From contig CAZOZI010000004.1 in assembly GCA_964584265.1 (NCBI GenBank), positions 1,877-65,876 on the forward strand: 64,000 nt of DNA, read 5' to 3'. Every line of letters begins with the position of its first letter. Position 1 is the stretch's first letter. Below the pieces are notes generated by a model. It did no database searches. It had not been told where the DNA came from and saw nothing but the letters and a program-made list of their open reading frames with translations. This document shows, piece after piece, positions 1-27,008 of this stretch. Source of the stretch: an uncultured Candidatus Saccharibacteria bacterium (GTDB taxonomy: Bacteria; Patescibacteriota; Saccharimonadia; Saccharimonadales; CAYVSP01). Made by a program: the position numbers and the translations under genes.

Positions 1-1812
1 GCACTAGTAATGTACGGTCGAGCTGGAGCCAAGCATGGTCGTGACCCACAATTGTTAATTTTAAGCAGTGAAGCTAAGCAAACGGCGGTACTTAATCTCA
101 CTAAGCTTGATAAAAAAGCTGTCCAGAAATTTTTGAGTACGCACCTAAACAACAAAGCATCGCTGGTTGGCTATGACATCAAATCGACGCTAGAAATCTT
201 GATTGAGCTTGGTGTGCCGCTGCCCGCGGTGGGGCACGATGTACTCATTGGAGCCTTTTTGCTCAACCCGCTTATACGCGAACAATCATTGACTGAGTTG
301 GCTCAAGCTGATCTTGGCTATGATGGTTCATCATTTGAAGATCTTGACCAGGCACAACTAGTTGATCGTGCAGCCGAGATAACAGGTGTAATTACAGCCT
401 TGTATGAAAAACAAACCGCTGCTCTTGCCAAGTTGCCAAAGCTTATTAAGCTGGCTCGTGACATTGAATGGCCGGTTATCCCAGTAATCGCTCGTATGGA
501 ATACGAAGGTATTCAGCTCGATACAGACTACCTCAAAAAAATGAGTGAGCAACTTGACGACATGGTGCTTGAGATTGAGCAAAAAATTTATGGTCACGCC
601 GATCAGGAATTCAATATTGGCTCACCAATCCAGCTAGCCGACATCCTATTTAACAAACTGAATTTGCCTAAAGAAGGTATAAAAAAAGGAAAAACCGGCT
701 ACTCTACAGCTGCCACTGAGCTTGATAAGCTGCGCGGGGCACATCCAATAATTGATCTCGTAACTCAGTGGCGTGAGGTCACCAAACTTAAGAACACCTA
801 CGTCGACGTTATGCCCAAAATGGTGGATGAAAACTCAAGATTACATACCACCTATGCTCTAACCGTCGCGCAAACCGGACGTCTCAGCTCCAATGATCCA
901 AACTTGCAAAATATCCCGGTTCGCACAGACCTCGGTAAGCAGATTCGCACTGCTTTTGTGGCCGGTAAGGGTAAGATACTGGTTAGCGCTGACTATTCTC
1001 AGTTTGAACTACGTCTTGCGGCTTACTTATCTGGCGATAAACGCCTGATTGATATGTTTAACCGCGACGTTGATGTGCATACCACTACTGCCGCCGAAAT
1101 ATATGGCCGCGAAGAACAGGACGTTACTAAAAATATGCGGCGCGAGGCCAAGGTTGTAAATTTTGGCGTAATGTACGGTCTTAGCACGCACGGCCTGGTG
1201 CAGGCTACTGGTCTTACCTACGAACAAGCCAAAAACTTTATTGATAAATACTTTGAAGTTCGCCCAAAGCTACGTGATTATATTGGTTCAGTTCAAGAGA
1301 TGGCCAAAACTAAAGGTTATACAGAGACAATTTTTGGTCGCCGCCGGCCTACACCTGACATTCATTCCTCTAATTTTGCTGTGCGAGAAGCTGCCATGCG
1401 ACAAGCGGTTAACATGCCATTTCAGGGCAGTGCAGCCGACATTATGAAATTGGCCATGATTGCTGTCCAATCTAAGCTCGATGAATTTAATCAGAAGTAT
1501 TTGGGTTTGGATGCAGCGCAAGGAAGCAAGGAGGAGCGAGTGAGCCGTACAAACGGTACGATGAACGAGCGACTGACGCTAGCTGACACAGCGATGCGCC
1601 AAAAGCGCGCCGGTATATCCGGCTCTGCCGGACAACAGGGCAGTGCGGCCCATATACTTCTGCAAATCCATGACAGTTTAATTGTAGAATGCAACGAAAA
1701 AGACGCTGATAAAACGGCCAAATTACTCAAAGATACCATGGAGCACGTCTATAAACTGCCAGTTAAACTCACCGTTGACACCGCAATCGGCAAAAATTGG
1801 GGTGAATTGTGA
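1..1812 (+). CDS. polA: DNA polymerase I, 3' part (5' end outside window)
   Basis: Frame of ORF 10..1812 stays open back to base 1. Family-A polymerase motifs DYSQFELR, RREAKVVNFGVMYG and QIHDSLIVE. Extra ~46-aa segment just before the QIHD strand (see findings). Confidence 0.93.
   Translation, partial: ALVMYGRAGAKHGRDPQLLILSSEAKQTAVLNLTKLDKKAVQKFLSTHLNNKASLVGYDIKSTLEILIELGVPLPAVGHDVLIGAFLLNPLIREQSLTELAQADLGYDGSSFEDLDQAQLVDRAAEITGVITALYEKQTAALAKLPKLIKLARDIEWPVIPVIARMEYEGIQLDTDYLKKMSEQLDDMVLEIEQKIYGHADQEFNIGSPIQLADILFNKLNLPKEGIKKGKTGYSTAATELDKLRGAHPIIDLVTQWREVTKLKNTYVDVMPKMVDENSRLHTTYALTVAQTGRLSSNDPNLQNIPVRTDLGKQIRTAFVAGKGKILVSADYSQFELRLAAYLSGDKRLIDMFNRDVDVHTTTAAEIYGREEQDVTKNMRREAKVVNFGVMYGLSTHGLVQATGLTYEQAKNFIDKYFEVRPKLRDYIGSVQEMAKTKGYTETIFGRRRPTPDIHSSNFAVREAAMRQAVNMPFQGSAADIMKLAMIAVQSKLDEFNQKYLGLDAAQGSKEERVSRTNGTMNERLTLADTAMRQKRAGISGSAGQQGSAAHILLQIHDSLIVECNEKDADKTAKLLKDTMEHVYKLPVKLTVDTAIGKNWGEL
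1510..1648. repeat. P1 palindromic element copy inside polA, in frame
   Basis: GATGCAGCGCAAGGAAG..GGAGCGAG..CCGTAC..GGTACG..GAGCGACTGACGC aligns block by block with the reverse complement of 26308..26426 and 15459..15565. Confidence 0.7.
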
Positions 1813-1840
1813 ATACTACAGAGCCAAAAGAATATACTAC

Positions 1841-2386
1841 ATGAGTAAATTTATTTTTGTTAGGCATGGACAGAGCCAAGCAAACGCTGCTGGCCTTATT
1901 GCAACAGACGATTCACCGCTAACACCTCAAGGTATAGCTGAAGCTACTAAAACAGCTCATGAACTCAGGGATATGGGCATTAAAGTAGTGGTATGCTCGC
2001 CGATGCCTCGGGCCCAACTAACTGCTGAAATAATTGCCGGTGAGATCGGCGTAGACCTGGCACATATAAAAGTTATTAATGAATTGCGCGAACGAGAAGC
2101 TGGTAAACTTCGTGGCAAAGCTAAAACCCACGAATCTGAGTGGTACCTCAAAATTGATACTGACCACGGCTTCGAATCAAGAGCTGATTTAATAACGCGA
2201 ATGAAGACATGTCTTAATAAACTCAAGGCAATTGCAAAAAAGGAAGGCGTTGTATTGGCTGTAGGACACGCAGCATCTGGCTATTACCTGTTAGAGGTTG
2301 CAAAGGGAAAGACCAAATTTGAGGAATTTGAATTTGATCCAGGTCGGCAAATTAATAATGCTGATTTTATTGAGGTTGAAGTTTAA
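1841..2386 (+). CDS. histidine phosphatase family protein (phosphoglycerate mutase-like)
   Basis: N-terminal FVRHGQSQAN catalytic motif. Start moved to ATG 1841 (MSKFIFVRHG) because ORF-track start 1775 overlaps polA. Confidence 0.8.
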   Translation: MSKFIFVRHGQSQANAAGLIATDDSPLTPQGIAEATKTAHELRDMGIKVVVCSPMPRAQLTAEIIAGEIGVDLAHIKVINELREREAGKLRGKAKTHESEWYLKIDTDHGFESRADLITRMKTCLNKLKAIAKKEGVVLAVGHAASGYYLLEVAKGKTKFEEFEFDPGRQINNADFIEVEV

Positions 2387-2943
2387 TGGCTGAAGAGCGA
2401 TACGATGTGCTCGACGAGCACGGCCATAAAACAGGACAGGTTTTACCGAAATCCGAAGTGCATGAGAAGGAACTTTGGCATGCGTCCGCCTTTGTGTGGA
2501 TTTATAACGATAAAGGTGAGGTGCTTTTGCAACTCCGCGACAAAAACAAGAAATCTTTTCCTGGACTATGGGATGTGTCGGTTGCGGGACACATTTCTGC
2601 AGGGGATAGTCCTGAACTAACGGCAGTTAGAGAGACCGAAGAGGAAATAGGAATAAAGATTTCAGAATCAGAGCTTGAGAAAGTCGAATACACCTATGAT
2701 ATTGCTCCGTACCTGCCCAACAAGAAACACCCCGAATTTTGCTGGGTCTACATTCTTCATAAAAACTTAGAGCTTAAAGACTTGAAAATCGCAGAAGGCG
2801 AGGTAACAGACGTACGCCTTATTAATGTTGATCAGCTTCTACGTGAATTTAGAGATACACAGATGTCAAAAGTCTATGCTGCGCGCAATCCACTAGTCTA
2901 TGAAACAGCGTTAGAAGTAATTAAGAAAAAATTATTGAAGTAA
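2386..2943 (+). CDS. NUDIX hydrolase
   Basis: Nudix box GHISAGDSPELTAVRETEEEIGI. ATG overlaps the upstream TAA (TAATG). Confidence 0.85.
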   Translation: MAEERYDVLDEHGHKTGQVLPKSEVHEKELWHASAFVWIYNDKGEVLLQLRDKNKKSFPGLWDVSVAGHISAGDSPELTAVRETEEEIGIKISESELEKVEYTYDIAPYLPNKKHPEFCWVYILHKNLELKDLKIAEGEVTDVRLINVDQLLREFRDTQMSKVYAARNPLVYETALEVIKKKLLK

Positions 2944-3732
2944 GTCTTCATACCAGCTGACGTCATGGACACGTAAATATAGCTGATGGTTTTTACTTGC
3001 CTGCACAGCAATCATAGCGGCTTCAAGGTTGCGATCTTTGCTGACTTTAAGTTTATTTGCATCTGTTAACAGCTCACCAGTTTTTGTATCAGTTGCCAGA
3101 AAACGTTTCTTGGAGTGCCCAATTACAACTGTTTGATTATTAGGTAGTAACGAAGCAAAACGCAGTAGTTCCCAGTTGAGACGCATGGTCTTGCCAAAAC
3201 CAACACCCGGATCAAGCCAGATATCACTAGACGAAACACCAGCATTTAGAATAATTTGTCTTTGCTGCAAAAGCTCCTGCTTAACTTCTTTAGCACTGTC
3301 CATTCGGAAATTATCATGTGCATCTTTTATTGAACTGGCTTGCAGAGGTAAATGGCTGACTATACAAGTTGCTTTATGGCGAGCTGCGACTTCCACCAGC
3401 GAGGGATTTCGAAATGTAGTCACATCGTTGATAATGAAGGGTCCCAATCGCAAGGCTTTTTCGGCAACTTCTGGATGAAATGTATCTAAGGATAAACGAC
3501 CATGAAATTCTTTATTTAGTATTGGCAAAATGGATTTCAGCCGAGCCCACTCCTCATCAGCAGAAATTGGTTCGACAAATGGGTTGGTGGCCTGTGAGCC
3601 AATGTCTACAATGCCAGCGCCATCAGCAAACAATTTTCTAGCTTGCGTCAAAGCAACAACCGGGTCCAAAAACTTACCACCATCGGAAAAACTATCTGGT
3701 GTAATGTTTAGTATCCCAATAAAACTAACCAT
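2932..3732 (-). CDS. folP: dihydropteroate synthase
   Basis: GILNITPDSFSDGG pterin-binding signature. Start set at MVSFIGILN (3732); ORF-track start 3771 would overlap divergent folK. Confidence 0.88.
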   Translation of the reverse strand: MVSFIGILNITPDSFSDGGKFLDPVVALTQARKLFADGAGIVDIGSQATNPFVEPISADEEWARLKSILPILNKEFHGRLSLDTFHPEVAEKALRLGPFIINDVTTFRNPSLVEVAARHKATCIVSHLPLQASSIKDAHDNFRMDSAKEVKQELLQQRQIILNAGVSSSDIWLDPGVGFGKTMRLNWELLRFASLLPNNQTVVIGHSKKRFLATDTKTGELLTDANKLKVSKDRNLEAAMIAVQASKNHQLYLRVHDVSWYEDLLQ

Positions 3733-3765
3733 TGCTTCATCATAACATCGTGTTAGGATTGTTTC

Positions 3766-4248
3766 ATGCAAGAGGTATATCTGGCGTTGGGCTCAAATGT
3801 GGGGGATAGCCGTCATTTTATTGATGAGGCGATAAAACTGCTCAGCAGTTCGATTACAAATATTGTCCGCGCACCTATCTACAAATCAAAGGCTGTCGGC
3901 TACACAGACCAAGCGGACTTTTTCAATACAATTGTGCAATGTCAAACAAACCTATCGCCGGGAAAACTACTTAAGTTCATAAAAGATGTAGAGAAACAGG
4001 TGGGCAGGGTAGAGCGTTTTCGCTGGGGCCCGCGCGAGATAGATATAGACATAATTTTTTACGGGCAAGAAATGGTGCAAAAAGAAGGATTAACTATTCC
4101 ACACCCTCGTTTTCGCGAACGCGATTTTGTCCTCCTACCTTTGTGCGATCTAAGCCCTAATATTGTCGATCCCGAAACAAAGCTTACTGTTAAAAAGCTA
4201 TTAGAGAAACTACCAAAGGATCAGCAATCAGGTATATCTGAAGTCTAA
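3766..4248 (+). CDS. folK: 2-amino-4-hydroxy-6-hydroxymethyldihydropteridine pyrophosphokinase (HPPK)
   Basis: VYLALGSNVGD N-terminus, RWGPREIDIDII and HPRFRERDFVL motifs typical of HPPK. Adjacent to folP. Confidence 0.88.
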   Translation: MQEVYLALGSNVGDSRHFIDEAIKLLSSSITNIVRAPIYKSKAVGYTDQADFFNTIVQCQTNLSPGKLLKFIKDVEKQVGRVERFRWGPREIDIDIIFYGQEMVQKEGLTIPHPRFRERDFVLLPLCDLSPNIVDPETKLTVKKLLEKLPKDQQSGISEV

Positions 4249-4306
4249 TTTATTGCCAAATATGCTTCTAGATGTTATTATATAGTTGTTAAGAGACTTT
4301 TTTTAA

Positions 4307-4876
4307 ATGAGATACTTTTTAGGGCTGCTGACATTTATCGCTTTCATTATCTTGGTAGTGGTAGTAGTAGTTCATCATGGTTCAAATACTGGTAGTGGCA
4401 CAAGCTCCGGCATTAAAACCGTGCACTTGACTGATTACATTGATAAGAACAGTGAAGTGCAGTTGACTACTGATGGGCATATTAATAGCGAGGAAGAACA
4501 CCGCGCTATTCAAATTAACGTTACTCCAAACTCGCGAGAGGCAATCGTTTTTAGAGGATACAATCAACAAGTCCTAAAACAGGAAAGTTTACCCAATAGC
4601 AAAGCAGCCTACGATGCGTTTTTACGCTCTTTAGCACTACTCAACTTTACTAAGGAAAAAAGAGGCGTTAGACAAACTGATGAACGGGGTGTGTGTCCAA
4701 CCGGCAAGCGTTATATCTATGAACTGCTGGAAGACAATAAAGACGTTACTAGGTTGTGGTCTACCAGTTGTAGCAGCTCACAAGGCACCTTTGCAGGAAC
4801 CCCGTCAACAGTACAAACTTTATTCCAGAACCAAATTCCTGACTACAATAAGTTTGTTATTGATGTTCAGCTATAG
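4307..4876 (+). CDS. hypothetical membrane-anchored protein
   Basis: 189-aa ORF with a hydrophobic N-terminal helix (LGLLTFIAFIILVVVVVV). No recognisable motif. Confidence 0.6.
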   Translation: MRYFLGLLTFIAFIILVVVVVVHHGSNTGSGTSSGIKTVHLTDYIDKNSEVQLTTDGHINSEEEHRAIQINVTPNSREAIVFRGYNQQVLKQESLPNSKAAYDAFLRSLALLNFTKEKRGVRQTDERGVCPTGKRYIYELLEDNKDVTRLWSTSCSSSQGTFAGTPSTVQTLFQNQIPDYNKFVIDVQL

Positions 4877-4908
4877 CTATAGATTGGCTCAGTCTTTAGA
4901 ATGAAGAG

Positions 4909-6745: not shown

Positions 6746-7783
6746 ATGCCGGAGTTGCCAGAGGTTGAGACGGTTAGAAGTGGGCTTAACAGGTTATTGC
6801 CTGGAAAGCGTGTTAAGTATGTAACGCATAATTGGGCTAAATCTTTTCCAAATGCTGAAGAAGATGTAAAGTGGTTTCTAATTGGTGCCAGAATTAAAAA
6901 AGTGGCACGTCGCGCTAAGATCTTACTAATTGAACTTGATAGCAAATATAGCCTGGTGATTCATTTAAAAATGACCGGGCAACTCGTTTTTGTAAAAAAC
7001 AATCCTTCCAGCGTATCTTCAGGCGAGCAGAATTTCGGTGCGAAGGCGAGCAACGGACCGAGTCGTAAAAGGGTTACGGTGAAGGGAGTAACGCAGCCTT
7101 TAAGCCGAAAAGCTGCCGCAAGCCAGTCTGAACAAGCGACTTGGTCGGTTGAGCTGACTGGCGATGAAGATCGCTGGGGGGCAGGGCATCCAAACGATAG
7201 CTTAATAGGTAATCTACCAGATAAAAGCACCAGAGTTATACTCGATTTTGGCGACAGCAAGCTATTTTTTAACGATCAACGCAAATTTGGCTGGATGCGG
7301 CTCATGCCAACCGCCGAAGTGCTCAACATAGACTTTATGAAAAGACTCGGACCTGAGCCATTGAATGCAGATTTTACTCAGACCACTTTCCGCGAGCGAC
7401 TTAGTCGGCGAGCGAATACAAATATTAAGGCTGCGCTGCTGGATCAAAGCGTTATTGCCGGAATCGGCAACATTTATGCCGATGAATCACTGTGGGGTGC
7501 CAAAATTCATCCAGCCACACTGGTTAAAAACCTATCTTTTAATAAACTCAATCAACTATATGATTCCATGCGTAAAGTGCTGAAACTGGCGATTAAAAAG
7601 GGCGGCTCAACCGATCGAAATTATGTAGACGCTGAGGGCAAAAAGGGCAGTTATTTAAGCTTCGCTAAGGTATTTCGGCGCAATGGGCAGCCGTGCCCAC
7701 GCTGCGGTACAATAATTGAGAAGATACGAGTTGCAGGGCGAGGCACACACTTTTGTACAAAGTGCCAGAAGTTGACAAAATAG
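6746..7783 (+). CDS. mutM: formamidopyrimidine-DNA glycosylase
   Basis: MPELPEVETVRSGL N-terminus, H2TH region, C-terminal zinc finger CPRCG...FCTKCQ. Long internal extra segment (see findings). Confidence 0.9.
   Translation: MPELPEVETVRSGLNRLLPGKRVKYVTHNWAKSFPNAEEDVKWFLIGARIKKVARRAKILLIELDSKYSLVIHLKMTGQLVFVKNNPSSVSSGEQNFGAKASNGPSRKRVTVKGVTQPLSRKAAASQSEQATWSVELTGDEDRWGAGHPNDSLIGNLPDKSTRVILDFGDSKLFFNDQRKFGWMRLMPTAEVLNIDFMKRLGPEPLNADFTQTTFRERLSRRANTNIKAALLDQSVIAGIGNIYADESLWGAKIHPATLVKNLSFNKLNQLYDSMRKVLKLAIKKGGSTDRNYVDAEGKKGSYLSFAKVFRRNGQPCPRCGTIIEKIRVAGRGTHFCTKCQKLTK
7031..7175. repeat. diverged P1-like element inside mutM, in frame
   Basis: ATTTCGGTGCGAAGG..GGACCGAGTCGTAAAAGGGTTACGGTGAAGGGAG...GCGATGAAG shares the ATTTCG terminus and the GTGC-AAGG, GGA-CGAG, CGTA/TACG and GTGA-G-GAG blocks with the P1 consensus. 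Confidence 0.5.
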
Positions 7784-9515: not shown

Positions 9516-9655
9516 TTCTTTTCCAAAGAACACAAATGCTATGTTCCATTTTTGTGTCGACAAAAACGGAACCCAAAAAACGACAGGCAGCTGCCAAACA
9601 TGATTGCCGGTCTACCCAGACTTCAGCCGTGCGCTAAAGGACTCCTTTTAGTCGG
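9513..9655 (+). repeat. composite 3'-flank element, left modules (after holA)
   Basis: Module order: TAG-GTTCTTT-tcc-AAAGAAC hairpin; hairpin GTTCC-A-TTTTTG-tgtcga-CAAAAA-C-GGAAC; box AAAACGACAGGCAGC; box AGCCGTGCGCTAAAGGACTCCTTTTAGTCGG. Collinear with 31352..31489. Confidence 0.65.
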
Positions 9656-9820: not shown

Positions 9821-10342
9821 ATGGCTATTTATTGTACAACTGAGGAAGCTAGAGAATATATTAGCCACGAGCTTCCAGTTGGCCTAGAACTACCACGGAA
9901 TACAAACTTTAACACTGTAAAAAATCACTGCGCAACCGCAGTAATTTTTGCCGCGCTGGGTGAACCAGAACAAACACATAATCTTAGCCAACTTTATAGT
10001 GCATTTGCGATCAGAAGTCCGGGCTGGGCTGATGTAGAGTTTACAAAAAATGATTCTAAACGAATACGCGAGAACATAAGACGACGCAGGGATAGCAGCG
10101 AACAAGATGCAAATCTACGATTAGCTGACGGGCGCGAGGAAAATCAGATTGAGGCGTTCCGATTTATCCTAGCAAATGCGTGGAAGCTCGAAGATGATTT
10201 AGTTGATGTTTATGCAGTTGACGCTCAGGGCACGATAGCCAAGGTAACGACTATGGGTGGCTGGGTTGATCTGGAAGATTTTAATTGGCATTGGATAGCT
10301 GAATCAATTGAATCGGGTATTAAGCGAGAATTTAATTCATAA
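9821..10342 (+). CDS. hypothetical protein carried between the two halves of a composite repeat element
   Basis: 173-aa acidic ORF with no recognisable motif. Flanked by repeat modules 9513..9655 and 10415..10602. Confidence 0.6.
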   Translation: MAIYCTTEEAREYISHELPVGLELPRNTNFNTVKNHCATAVIFAALGEPEQTHNLSQLYSAFAIRSPGWADVEFTKNDSKRIRENIRRRRDSSEQDANLRLADGREENQIEAFRFILANAWKLEDDLVDVYAVDAQGTIAKVTTMGGWVDLEDFNWHWIAESIESGIKREFNS

Positions 10343-15190: not shown

Positions 15191-15454
15191 ATGGTAACTT
15201 CGGATAAAAAAGTCAAAGCTGCTCCTAAAAAGGCAGCTAAAGTAGATACGGGCAGTACCAGTTTTCAAATTACTCATTTAACTGAGCACATAAAGGATTT
15301 AACTGGCCACCTTAAGGTGAATCCCAAGGATTTTGCAGCCCGACGAGGACTATTGCAGATGGTTGGACATCGCAAGCGTTTACTTAATTATTTAGCTAGC
15401 AAAGATAGCAAACAATACCTTACGCTCAAAGAAAAGCTAGGCATTCGCCGTTGA
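15191..15454 (+). CDS. rpsO: 30S ribosomal protein S15
   Basis: [39 protein letters not shown] is the S15 signature region. Followed by pnp, as in most bacteria. Confidence 0.93.
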
Positions 15455-15458
15455 CCCC

Positions 15459-15565
15459 CTAGTTTTGTACATTTCGTTGTTGGAACTTTCGCTCCGCGCT
15501 CACCGTACCAGTTGAGTACGGCTCGCTTGCGGTGCTCGTTCCGCCTAGAACTGTACTAAAACCAG
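15459..15565. repeat. P1 palindromic element, intergenic copy (rpsO-pnp)
   Basis: ~107-nt imperfect palindrome (CTAGTTTTGTACA...TGTACTAAAACCAG) with core GCTCAC-CGTAC-N7-GTACG-GCTCGCT. Begins 5 nt after the rpsO stop. Confidence 0.75.
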
Positions 15566-15665
15566 AGAGTCAATCTCTAAGTTAACAATTTATACGATTC
15601 GGGAGTAGGACATTAGTCCGCTGGGTATGCGGATTGAATCTTGCGCCCGAACAGAAAGGAATTTG

Positions 15666-26097: not shown

Positions 26098-26301
26098 ATG
26101 GCAAAGATTTTTAAATATAGAACAGACGTCCCGTTTTTCGACTATAAGGATTTTAAAACCTTGCAGCGCTACGTTAATGGCTACGGGCAGATTGAAACCC
26201 GTAAGAAAACAGGTCTAACTGAAAGCCAGCAACGTCGTTTGAGCGTGGCTATCAAACGCGCGCGACACATTGCACTCTTACCTTTTGTGGCAAACGGCTA
26301 G
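26098..26301 (+). CDS. rpsR: 30S ribosomal protein S18
   Basis: DYKDFKTLQRYVNGYGQIETRKKTGL and RRLSVAIKRARHIALLPF. Canonical rpsF-ssb-rpsR order. Confidence 0.93.
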   Translation: MAKIFKYRTDVPFFDYKDFKTLQRYVNGYGQIETRKKTGLTESQQRRLSVAIKRARHIALLPFVANG

Positions 26302-26307
26302 TATTTT

Positions 26308-26426
26308 TAGCCTATATTTCGCGAATTGCGGCGTCAGAACCTCCGCGCTTCGCTCACTGTACTGCTTACGGTACAGCTCGCTCCAGTACTCAGTTCTTCC
26401 TTGCACTTCATCGAAATGATAGGCTA
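26308..26426. repeat. P1 palindromic element, intergenic copy (rpsR-efp)
   Basis: 119-nt imperfect palindrome with termini TAGCCTAT-ATTTCG...CGAAAT-G-ATAGGCTA and core GCTCAC-TGTAC-N8-GTACA-GCTCGCT. Begins 7 nt after the rpsR stop. Confidence 0.75.
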
Positions 26427-26441
26427 AATTAGGAGATAATT

Positions 26442-27008
26442 ATGGCACTAGGTGTTACGGATTTAAAAAAAGGGCAGGTTTTCCAGCTTGAAGGTGTGCC
26501 TTACAGAGTGGTGGAATATGCACAAAAAGTTATGGGCCGTGGCGGAAGCATAGTAAACGTCAAAATTAAGAGCTTGCTAGACGGGCGAGTACTGGAAAAG
26601 ACCTTTAAGGGTAGTGAAACAATTCAAGCAGCTGATATTACTGCTAAAACCGTACAATATCTCTACTCTGATGGCACTAACTTCCACTTTATGGATGATA
26701 AAACCTATGAGCAGTTTCAGCTCCCAGCTCAAGATATGACCGACAAAAAAGGTTTTATGAAAGAAGGCGACGGAGTCCAGGCACAACTGTTCAATGGCCA
26801 AGTTATAAGTGTTGAGCTACCCAAAAACGTATCGCTCAAAGTAACTTACACCGAAGATGTGGTTAAGGGTGATACTAGCTCAGCCATTACTAAAAGTGCC
26901 GAAGTCGAAACTGGCATAAGCGTAAAAGTACCTGCCTTTATCAAAACGGGTGATATTATAAGCATTGATACAACTAACGGGGTTTATCGAGAGCGTATTA
27001 AGAGATAA
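26442..27008 (+). CDS. efp: elongation factor P
   Basis: Three-domain EF-P, 188 aa. The loop tip reads VMGRGGS (Arg at the position of E. coli Lys34). Confidence 0.9.
   Translation: MALGVTDLKKGQVFQLEGVPYRVVEYAQKVMGRGGSIVNVKIKSLLDGRVLEKTFKGSETIQAADITAKTVQYLYSDGTNFHFMDDKTYEQFQLPAQDMTDKKGFMKEGDGVQAQLFNGQVISVELPKNVSLKVTYTEDVVKGDTSSAITKSAEVETGISVKVPAFIKTGDIISIDTTNGVYRERIKR

Follow-up and report, generated by a model that had tools for sequence, protein, structure and literature searches.

Here, we analysed a stretch of 64,000 nt (hereafter the window) from contig CAZOZI010000004.1 of an uncultured Candidatus Saccharibacteria bacterium, whose DNA polymerase I gene, polA, carries an extra segment in frame. 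With a probability that we put at about 0.8, this segment is a non-autonomous, hairpin-forming interspersed repeat, about 125 nt long, or about 165 nt in a composite form that includes a second small hairpin and a closing stem. A first-pass annotation, made from the sequence alone, had read it as a selfish palindromic repeat lying in frame in an essential gene, like the Rickettsia palindromic elements (RPEs), and this reading was supported; the likeness to RPEs proved stronger than that annotation had foreseen, as the encoded peptide was found in at least six other protein families and a second copy was found in mutM.

The polA gene occupies positions 1..1812 of the forward strand; its open reading frame (ORF) spans 10..1812, with the 5' end off the window and 600 codons visible, and its homologues contained PF00476 and 5'-3' exonuclease domains. 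The insertion site is a variable loop of Pol I, with the last long helix of the palm on one side and the strand of motif C on the other. The first-pass annotation placed the insertion at 1510-1648, and both the sequence and the translation that it gave there were correct. The in-frame insertion was confirmed, but these bounds were too narrow, and the element extends over about 1492-1662 as one composite hairpin. This feature (1492..1662, forward strand) was delimited by the closing stem, the match to a covariance model named R1, the empty site of an insert-less relative (L122) and a full-length alignment with an intergenic copy from a groundwater Saccharibacterium (L061). Compared with the closest orthologue, the insert adds 52 codons, and no stop was present in the frame used. 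The G+C content of 1510-1648 was 61%, versus 45% in the rest of polA and 44% in the window.

Within the composite element, the main hairpin (1506..1603, forward strand) is the part homologous to two intergenic copies of the window, e1 and e2, and has the same bulge pattern; its apex is GAGCCGTAC-AAACG-GTACGATGA. The second small hairpin (GCCGGTATATCCGGC..., 1604..1648, forward strand) marks a composite subfamily, and it is common to the polA insert of another locus (L001), the intergenic copy of L061, a copy in L032, and six metagenome copies, in which the composite layout was also found. The L061 copy contains the main hairpin, the second small hairpin and an outer closing stem, and it aligned with the whole window insert, the 1604-1648 half included. 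In the window, the closing stem is formed by CAGAAGTATTTGGG (1492-1505) paired with CCCATATACTTCTG (1649-1662), 14 nt with 93% complementarity. Its 3' arm (1649..1662, forward strand) consists of native polA codons, (A)HILL, right before motif C (QIHD), and the insert-less relative L122 has GTACTTCTGCAG at this place. A perfect 12-bp stem, likewise built from the host's own codons (…VMLL), was found in the polA of L002 (9809-9820 paired with 9850-9861); in L001, 7 of 8 positions of the closing stem were paired by eye, and the automated scan of this locus reported no inverted repeat. The 5' arm of the polA insert thus appears to follow the host codons in three lineages and to differ accordingly. 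The second half of the insert had also been likened to a segment at 9541-9595, but the comparison scored 8 where shuffles averaged 6.2 ± 1.1, with 226 of the 2000 shuffles equal or better. This relatedness was rejected, the similarity being that of chance; judged by sequence comparison, the second half is part of the same composite element.

The likeness of the polA insert to the intergenic palindromes was then quantified. When the insert was searched against the whole 64-kb window by sensitive blastn, the top two non-self matches were 26416..26317 on the reverse strand (E = 5e-7) and 15563..15497, also on the reverse strand (E = 0.03). These matches lie in e1, the rpsR-efp copy (26299..26431, reverse strand), and e2, the rpsO-pnp copy (15445..15576, reverse strand), whose hairpin starts at the rpsO stop codon. 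In Smith-Waterman comparisons with dinucleotide shuffles, the insert gave z = 12.1 against the rpsR-efp copy, with 0 of 2000 shuffles as good, and z = 4.4 against the rpsO-pnp copy (5 of 2000 as good); in the opposite orientation, the same test gave a chance-level score. The covariance model R1 was trained on 104 copies from other genomes and on zero window sequence. It scored 65.3 bits for polA (1491-1621, E = 5.8e-15), 81.9 bits for e2 and 76.4 bits for e1, and it also gave 51.4 bits for the L001 polA insert, which lacks a match to the seed pattern used to collect the family. The resemblance to the palindromes at 26308..26426 and 15459..15565, reported in the first-pass annotation, was therefore upheld by blastn, shuffles and an independent covariance model, and the scan with shuffled controls that it had proposed recovered the polA inserts of both the window (65 bits) and L001 (51 bits). 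The polA, e1 and e2 copies all folded as long imperfect hairpins with one bulge pattern. The folding energies were -60.2 kcal/mol for e2 (z = -8.0 versus shuffles) and -50.8 kcal/mol for e1 (z = -6.6), and both folded better on the strand equivalent to the polA sense strand. A nhmmer profile of the three window copies detected no further strong copy in the window, which in total holds three strong copies and a decayed one in 64 kb.

Next, the spread of the family was assessed with a seed pattern based on the shared apex, GAGCYGTAC N2-9 GTACRRTGARCG, scanned against one genome per species. More than 119 stretches matched. Most of the matches listed were from the Candidate Phyla Radiation (CPR), i.e., Saccharibacteria, Gracilibacteria, Paceibacterota, and Kaiser-, Zambryski-, Uhr- and Yanofskybacteria; several of those listed were from outside it, namely Rokubacteria, an Acidoferrum (Acidobacteria), a Byssovorax (Myxococcota) and a few other genomes with 65-71% G+C. 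Some Nanosyncoccus genomes (L062 and L077) also have members of the family. The setting in Saccharibacteria and CPR given by the first-pass annotation thus held as far as it went, but the family also occurs in Rokubacteria, Acidobacteria and Myxococcota. The R1 scan covered 100 sources, the window plus 99 loci, and found 129 copies, 25 of them without a seed match, with up to 5 copies per 8 kb.

The model-based alignment of these copies supported a 39-pair hairpin, in which 83.5% of the cells were paired, versus 60% after column shuffling and no more than 41% with slid partners. As many as 37 of the 39 pairs had changed on both sides, and the covariation score was 0.546 versus 0.183, with none of 500 shuffles as high. 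The apex, GA-G-N-CGUAC-loop-GUACG-N-U-GA, was nearly invariant, the 25 seed-independent copies included, and the bracketing GA dinucleotides were present in 22-25 of these 25. The outer stems vary from copy to copy, yet they stay complementary. Searches with Rfam 15 returned only tRNAs in the window, no match at the elements of 18 loci with canonical copies, and no match at E ≤ 10 for one canonical copy. In an uncultured gammaproteobacterial contig (L037), a LOOT RNA (RF03000, 81 bits) was detected at 838-960, 6.7 kb from a family copy; it was rejected as a family member, as it lies elsewhere in the contig and is unrelated in sequence. The literature, searched also by apex sequence strings, gave no description of such elements in these bacteria. 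Neither Rfam nor the searched literature thus held a precedent from the CPR, and the first-pass annotation had been aware of none.

To place the insert among orthologues, 120 PolA homologues were aligned. The five closest (71-79% identity) had 33 residues from ADIMK to the end of motif C versus 85 in the window, and a loop of 6 residues versus 58; in most of the 120 homologues, the segment was of 32-38 residues. The PolA of locus L001 (P0011) is only 66% identical overall, yet it has a homologous insert of equal size, and the PolA of L002 (P0038) resembles the window insert minus its centre. A loop-free polA tree nested the window gene among insert-less genes and put P0011 and P0038 in distant clades, each with insert-less sisters, so that the insert-bearing genes fall into three distant clades. 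The presence/absence comparison suggested in the first-pass annotation therefore gave a patchy insert that the closest relatives lack. At the DNA level, the window and L001 inserts were 75% identical and the flanking gene 68%. The two inserts differ by indels of +1, +1 and -2, and the central stretch of about 14 residues is consequently read in different frames, indicating that the conservation is at the nucleotide and not at the protein level, and that the compensated frameshifts reflect selection to keep the frame. A segment conserved as a protein domain, which the first-pass annotation had named as contrary to its reading, was not what we found: the inserts are nucleotide-homologous, but their centres are read in different frames.

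An AlphaFold 2 model of the 600 visible PolA residues had a mean predicted local distance difference test (pLDDT) value of 89.9 and a template modelling score of about 0.8 against the Bst and Taq Pol I large fragments. The only low-confidence segment comprised residues ~501-547 (pLDDT 38-53), which follow the long helix 456-497 and precede the strand of motif C (548-553). The modelling thus agrees with the surface loop for which the first-pass annotation had proposed a test, the insert being predicted as the sole low-confidence segment. Translation of the insert would add to the enzyme a flexible, tolerated excursion of about 52 residues. This site is permissive, since different inserts were found here in the polA of other lineages, the one in P0030 also being palindromic. 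This other insert, found at 8620-8707 of L124 (polA of P0030) and also in P0013, P0015, P0036 and P0066, occupies the same loop in scattered lineages and encodes peptides of the type ..S(H/K)QSPV..K..T.D.R... It seems that the polA loop is a hot spot for the insertion of hairpins.

The mobility of the element was judged from three syntenic relatives (L126, L127 and L128), whose PNPase is 88-89% identical to that of the window. The PNPase search that yielded them also recovered the contig of the window itself (P0121, 100% identical); by exact sequence, the window RpsR had no record, and RpsO matched only a short contig identical to the window. The rpsR-efp gap was 6 nt in L126 and L127 versus 140 nt in the window, and e1 is thus an insertion of about 134 nt. 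The rpsO-pnp spacers of L126 (9855-9915) and L128 (9850-9915) contained ~52-nt hairpins whose sequence corresponds to the outer stem of e2 and the start of its left arm, and these hairpins are best read as copies that have lost their centre. We considered insertion of e2 into the loop of a pre-existing rpsO-pnp terminator and rejected it, because the hairpins of the relatives keep part of the left arm of the element and look like deletion remnants. The polA loop of L002 likewise has the look of an internal-deletion remnant. Strong copies were found in L128 at other sites, upstream of mutM and downstream of the RNase J gene, and no copy was detected in about 20 kb of syntenic sequence of L126 and L127. 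Moreover, the polA and mutM inserts are missing from close relatives. In close relatives, the sites are thus either empty or reduced to remnants by internal deletion, which means that the element is mobile or recently was. Loci with a copy at the e1 or e2 junctions were not found in other phyla. As a separate observation, the e1 insertion supplies an AGGAG 6 nt upstream of the efp start codon (window 26429-26444); in the relatives, efp begins 6 nt past the rpsR stop, without this AGGAG spacer.

The second in-frame copy of the window lies in mutM/fpg (6746..7783, forward strand), which was assigned by the Pfam families Fapy_DNA_glyco, H2TH and zf-FPG, with the match to the N-terminal domain stopping at residue 87. 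It is a decayed composite copy (7004..7162, forward strand), matched by R1 at 7008-7135 with 17.1 bits (E = 0.027). Protein alignment showed 53 extra codons in the window MutM when compared with the close relatives L126 and L128, and the extra DNA folds as a long composite hairpin. In the MutM of another Saccharibacterium (L011), a strong copy (90 bits) occupies the same loop in the opposite orientation. In-frame copies were also found elsewhere, in ArgRS (L033), RsmA (L070) and an RMKL-like methyltransferase (L032), and Pfam confirmed the host families. A metagenome-assembled genome labelled Bdellovibrionales (L052) contained five copies in 8 kb (1372-4879), with the repeated peptide appearing three times in a translated O-antigen-ligase ORF that Pfam confirmed as Wzy_C.

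The peptide was followed further by an exhaustive HMMER search with the 56-residue insert of the window (E ≤ 0.001), in which 13 cluster representatives matched; a word-indexed protein search with the 50-residue insert peptide gave zero candidates. The peptide common to the 13 representatives was HLDA(A/V)QGSQEER.SRT.GT.SERQTPADTAMRQ.PAG..GSAGQQGKA. Its hosts were methylpurine glycosylase (MPG), TilS, TsaE, two TruB proteins and inositol monophosphatase, together with a protein without a Pfam match and a pilin-like protein bearing the peptide at its N-terminus. It also occurs in frame in a methyltransferase. The remaining matches were small ORFs spanning intergenic copies and were probably called in error. 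Stop-free frames were few among the R1-found copies, about 20% in sense and about 51% in antisense, and the shared peptide frame is therefore what a stop-codon filter would leave. Two TruB cases deserve separate mention. In P0245, at residues ~25-105, the element peptide is preceded by a partial duplicate of its own C-terminal part (AGFANQQGEAVRKL ... AGVTGSASQQGKAVRKL), which suggests a tandem or partial second insertion. In a metagenome contig (L131), a composite copy lies inside a truB with several frameshifts outside the insert, which denote a pseudogene or indel errors; owing to these frameshifts, the copy was left out of the evidence on frame preservation, either way.

The genomic context was counted for copies in genomes below 58% G+C, with a crude ORF call. 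Between co-directional genes, 37 copies were antisense and 8 sense, and a further 17 had convergent and 7 divergent flanks. The strand with the G.A/G.U motif is hence the one mostly antisense to co-directional neighbours (37 versus 8; loci L003-L121). Many copies begin at the stop codon of the upstream gene or only a few bases from it, and the recurrent neighbours are housekeeping genes, such as those for translational GTPases, GyrB and ATP synthase. The copies of two species (L050 and L098) both lie 62 nt downstream of a methyltransferase gene. Neither a parent insertion sequence nor a transposase with matching ends was found within 3 kb of the copies. The plasmid and phage collections held no match to the family, and 2.9 million viral contigs gave one weak pattern match.

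These data would fit a repeat whose insertions into genes are mostly lost, the survivors being those that lack stops, have a length divisible by three and sit in permissive loops. Such a filter would explain why the same peptide is found in many unrelated housekeeping proteins, and why the polA and mutM loops were hit repeatedly. Copies would later decay, or shed their centre by internal deletion to leave short remnants. The nearly invariant apex and the co-evolving arms suggest a putative trans-acting protein, whose target may be either the element folded as a single strand or, in duplex DNA, its apical palindrome.

Several points weigh against this interpretation. No recurrent transposase-like neighbour was present among 474 ORFs clustered from within 3 kb of the copies. 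The e1 and polA junctions showed no clear direct target-site duplication, and the relatives are too diverged for exact placement of the junctions. The seed pattern biases the apparent conservation of the apex, even though the seed-independent copies agree with it. The composite elements in the polA of the window and of L001 are the same, agree in codon and orientation, and could descend from one insertion spread by polA recombination and not from two events. The argument for translation of the insert is the preservation of the frame, from which we infer it. Lastly, strong covariation and a strand-specific GA/GU motif would also fit a functional RNA.

This last point leads to the alternative that the hairpins are primarily cis-acting RNA or DNA structures maintained by the host, for instance for processing, stability or termination in operons of high expression or for the binding of a host protein, with accidental in-gene copies. 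Besides the strong covariation and the apex kept nearly invariant across phyla, it would account for the many copies that abut the stops of translation-related genes (rpsO, rpsR, and EF-Tu/EF-G-type GTPases), for the orientation bias of 37 antisense versus 8 sense copies, for the shared position of the L050 and L098 copies, and for e2 filling the rpsO-pnp spacer, which in E. coli contains a hairpin processed by RNase III. However, close relatives do without e1 and retain no more than a remnant of e2, which makes both copies dispensable, and the positions vary among close relatives. In addition, the more stable, motif-bearing strand is mostly antisense to the flanking genes, Rfam gave no family match, and 2-5 copies per 8 kb together with insertion into coding sequence are typical of selfish repeats. 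We regard this explanation as unlikely, though it is the strongest of the three rivals. A far smaller chance is given to removal of the polA insert before or during translation, whether as an intron-like or RNase-processed element or by ribosomal bypassing, as in T4 gene 60 and the mitochondrial byp elements. The insert is indeed one closed hairpin whose closing stem joins the flanking codons, and it is G+C-rich and palindromic, as known bypass elements are. Nevertheless, every clean in-gene copy is stop-free and keeps the frame, although in intergenic copies only about 20% of the sense and 51% of the antisense frames are open, the window and L001 frameshifts are compensated, and neither a splicing motif nor an Rfam intron match was detected.

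We give next to no credit to the third rival, i.e., that the segment is a genuine lineage-specific Pol I domain with a coincidental or compositional likeness to the intergenic copies. The same peptide does recur in the P0011 PolA, and the model predicts some helix inside the insert, but chance was rejected by the shuffle and covariance-model statistics, the closest orthologues lack the insert, its centre is in different frames in the window and L001, its pLDDT is 38-53, and the same peptide is present in unrelated enzymes. This reading is, in substance, refuted by these results. A hairpin-forming mobile repeat is thus the interpretation that we prefer.

When this repeat is compared with known systems, the closest in behaviour are the RPEs (RPE-1 to RPE-10; Ogata et al. 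2000), summarised in a review (PMC10969869). Both are palindromes, of about 100-150 bp in the RPEs, with several copies found between genes and in frame in unrelated housekeeping genes; each adds a recognisable peptide to its host protein, at positions inferred to be tolerated by the protein fold, and no transposase is known for either. They differ in that the hosts here are CPR bacteria (Patescibacteria) and several other phyla and not Rickettsia, and in that the present family has a cross-phylum apical motif, heavy compensatory change and many antisense copies. By analogy, the element seems to work like the RPEs, and it is not filed as an RPE family member, the likeness being of behaviour and not of sequence.

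The ERIC repeat (also IRU or RU-1) is a 127-bp enterobacterial element with intragenic copies described by Delihas 2007 (PMC2759123). It is of similar size, forms an imperfect long hairpin, and lies mostly in transcribed intergenic spacers beside stop codons, with occasional in-frame genic copies. An E. coli copy between ybhJ and ybhI (L123, 99-250) shares the apical layout of the present family, a G.U-closed helix bracketed by GA/GA and followed by UGAGCG, the ERIC sequence reading CCCCAG-GA-GCUUAC-AUAA-GUAAGU-GA-CUGGGG-UGAGCG. R1 aligned the whole of this copy in the right orientation, with only 10.6 bits and an E value of about 1, which is not significant. In contrast to the family described here, ERIC is confined to Enterobacteria and Vibrio. 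The element may be said to work like the intragenic ERIC/RU-1 copies, again by analogy, and it is not filed as an ERIC member.

Bacterial miniature inverted-repeat transposable elements (Correia/NEMIS, RUP, BOX and Nezha; reviewed in PMC10969869 and PMC3184786) are likewise small, multi-copy and hairpin-forming, lack a transposase gene, vary in presence among relatives, and can be co-transcribed with neighbouring genes. For the present family, neither a parent insertion sequence nor a neighbouring transposase was found, conserved terminal inverted repeats with clear direct target duplications were not seen, and the outer stems vary while always being complementary. The repetitive extragenic palindromes (REPs), of 20-40 bp with a GTAG or CGTC tag (PMC3733652), and the related REPINs are also long-persisting hairpin repeats with co-evolving arms; a single-copy Y1 transposase, the REP-associated tyrosine transposase (RAYT), recognises them in their folded, single-stranded form. 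By inspection, the element differs from REPs in its length of about 125 nt and in its conserved motif.

A bolder proposal, which we offer tentatively and hold to be rather less than an even bet, is that the element is the founding member of an ancient class of structured hairpins that spans several phyla. In such a class, the strand-specific apex, with tandem G.A and G.U pairs around CGUAC/GUACG, would be the recognition site of a mobilising or maintenance machinery, ERIC might be distant kin, and hairpin-templated correction would preserve the complementarity of the arms and could even recruit host coding sequence as an arm. If true, these hairpins would be a general source of new peptide segments in the essential enzymes of reduced CPR genomes.

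Palindromic repeats that colonise essential genes in frame are known mainly from Rickettsia, and the CPR-wide occurrence of this behaviour in core enzymes of replication, repair and tRNA modification means that it is not the oddity of one genus. The CPR makes up a large share of bacterial diversity. The element explains unexplained length variation and low-confidence loops in the proteins of these bacteria, and it carries a warning for annotation, as small ORFs called across intergenic copies are probably spurious; the covariance model R1 can be used to mask the repeat or to take a census of it. An apex that is nearly invariant across phyla, in a family for which no transposase is known, leads one to ask how such hairpins are moved or maintained, and the possible link with ERIC would join two long-unexplained repeat families.

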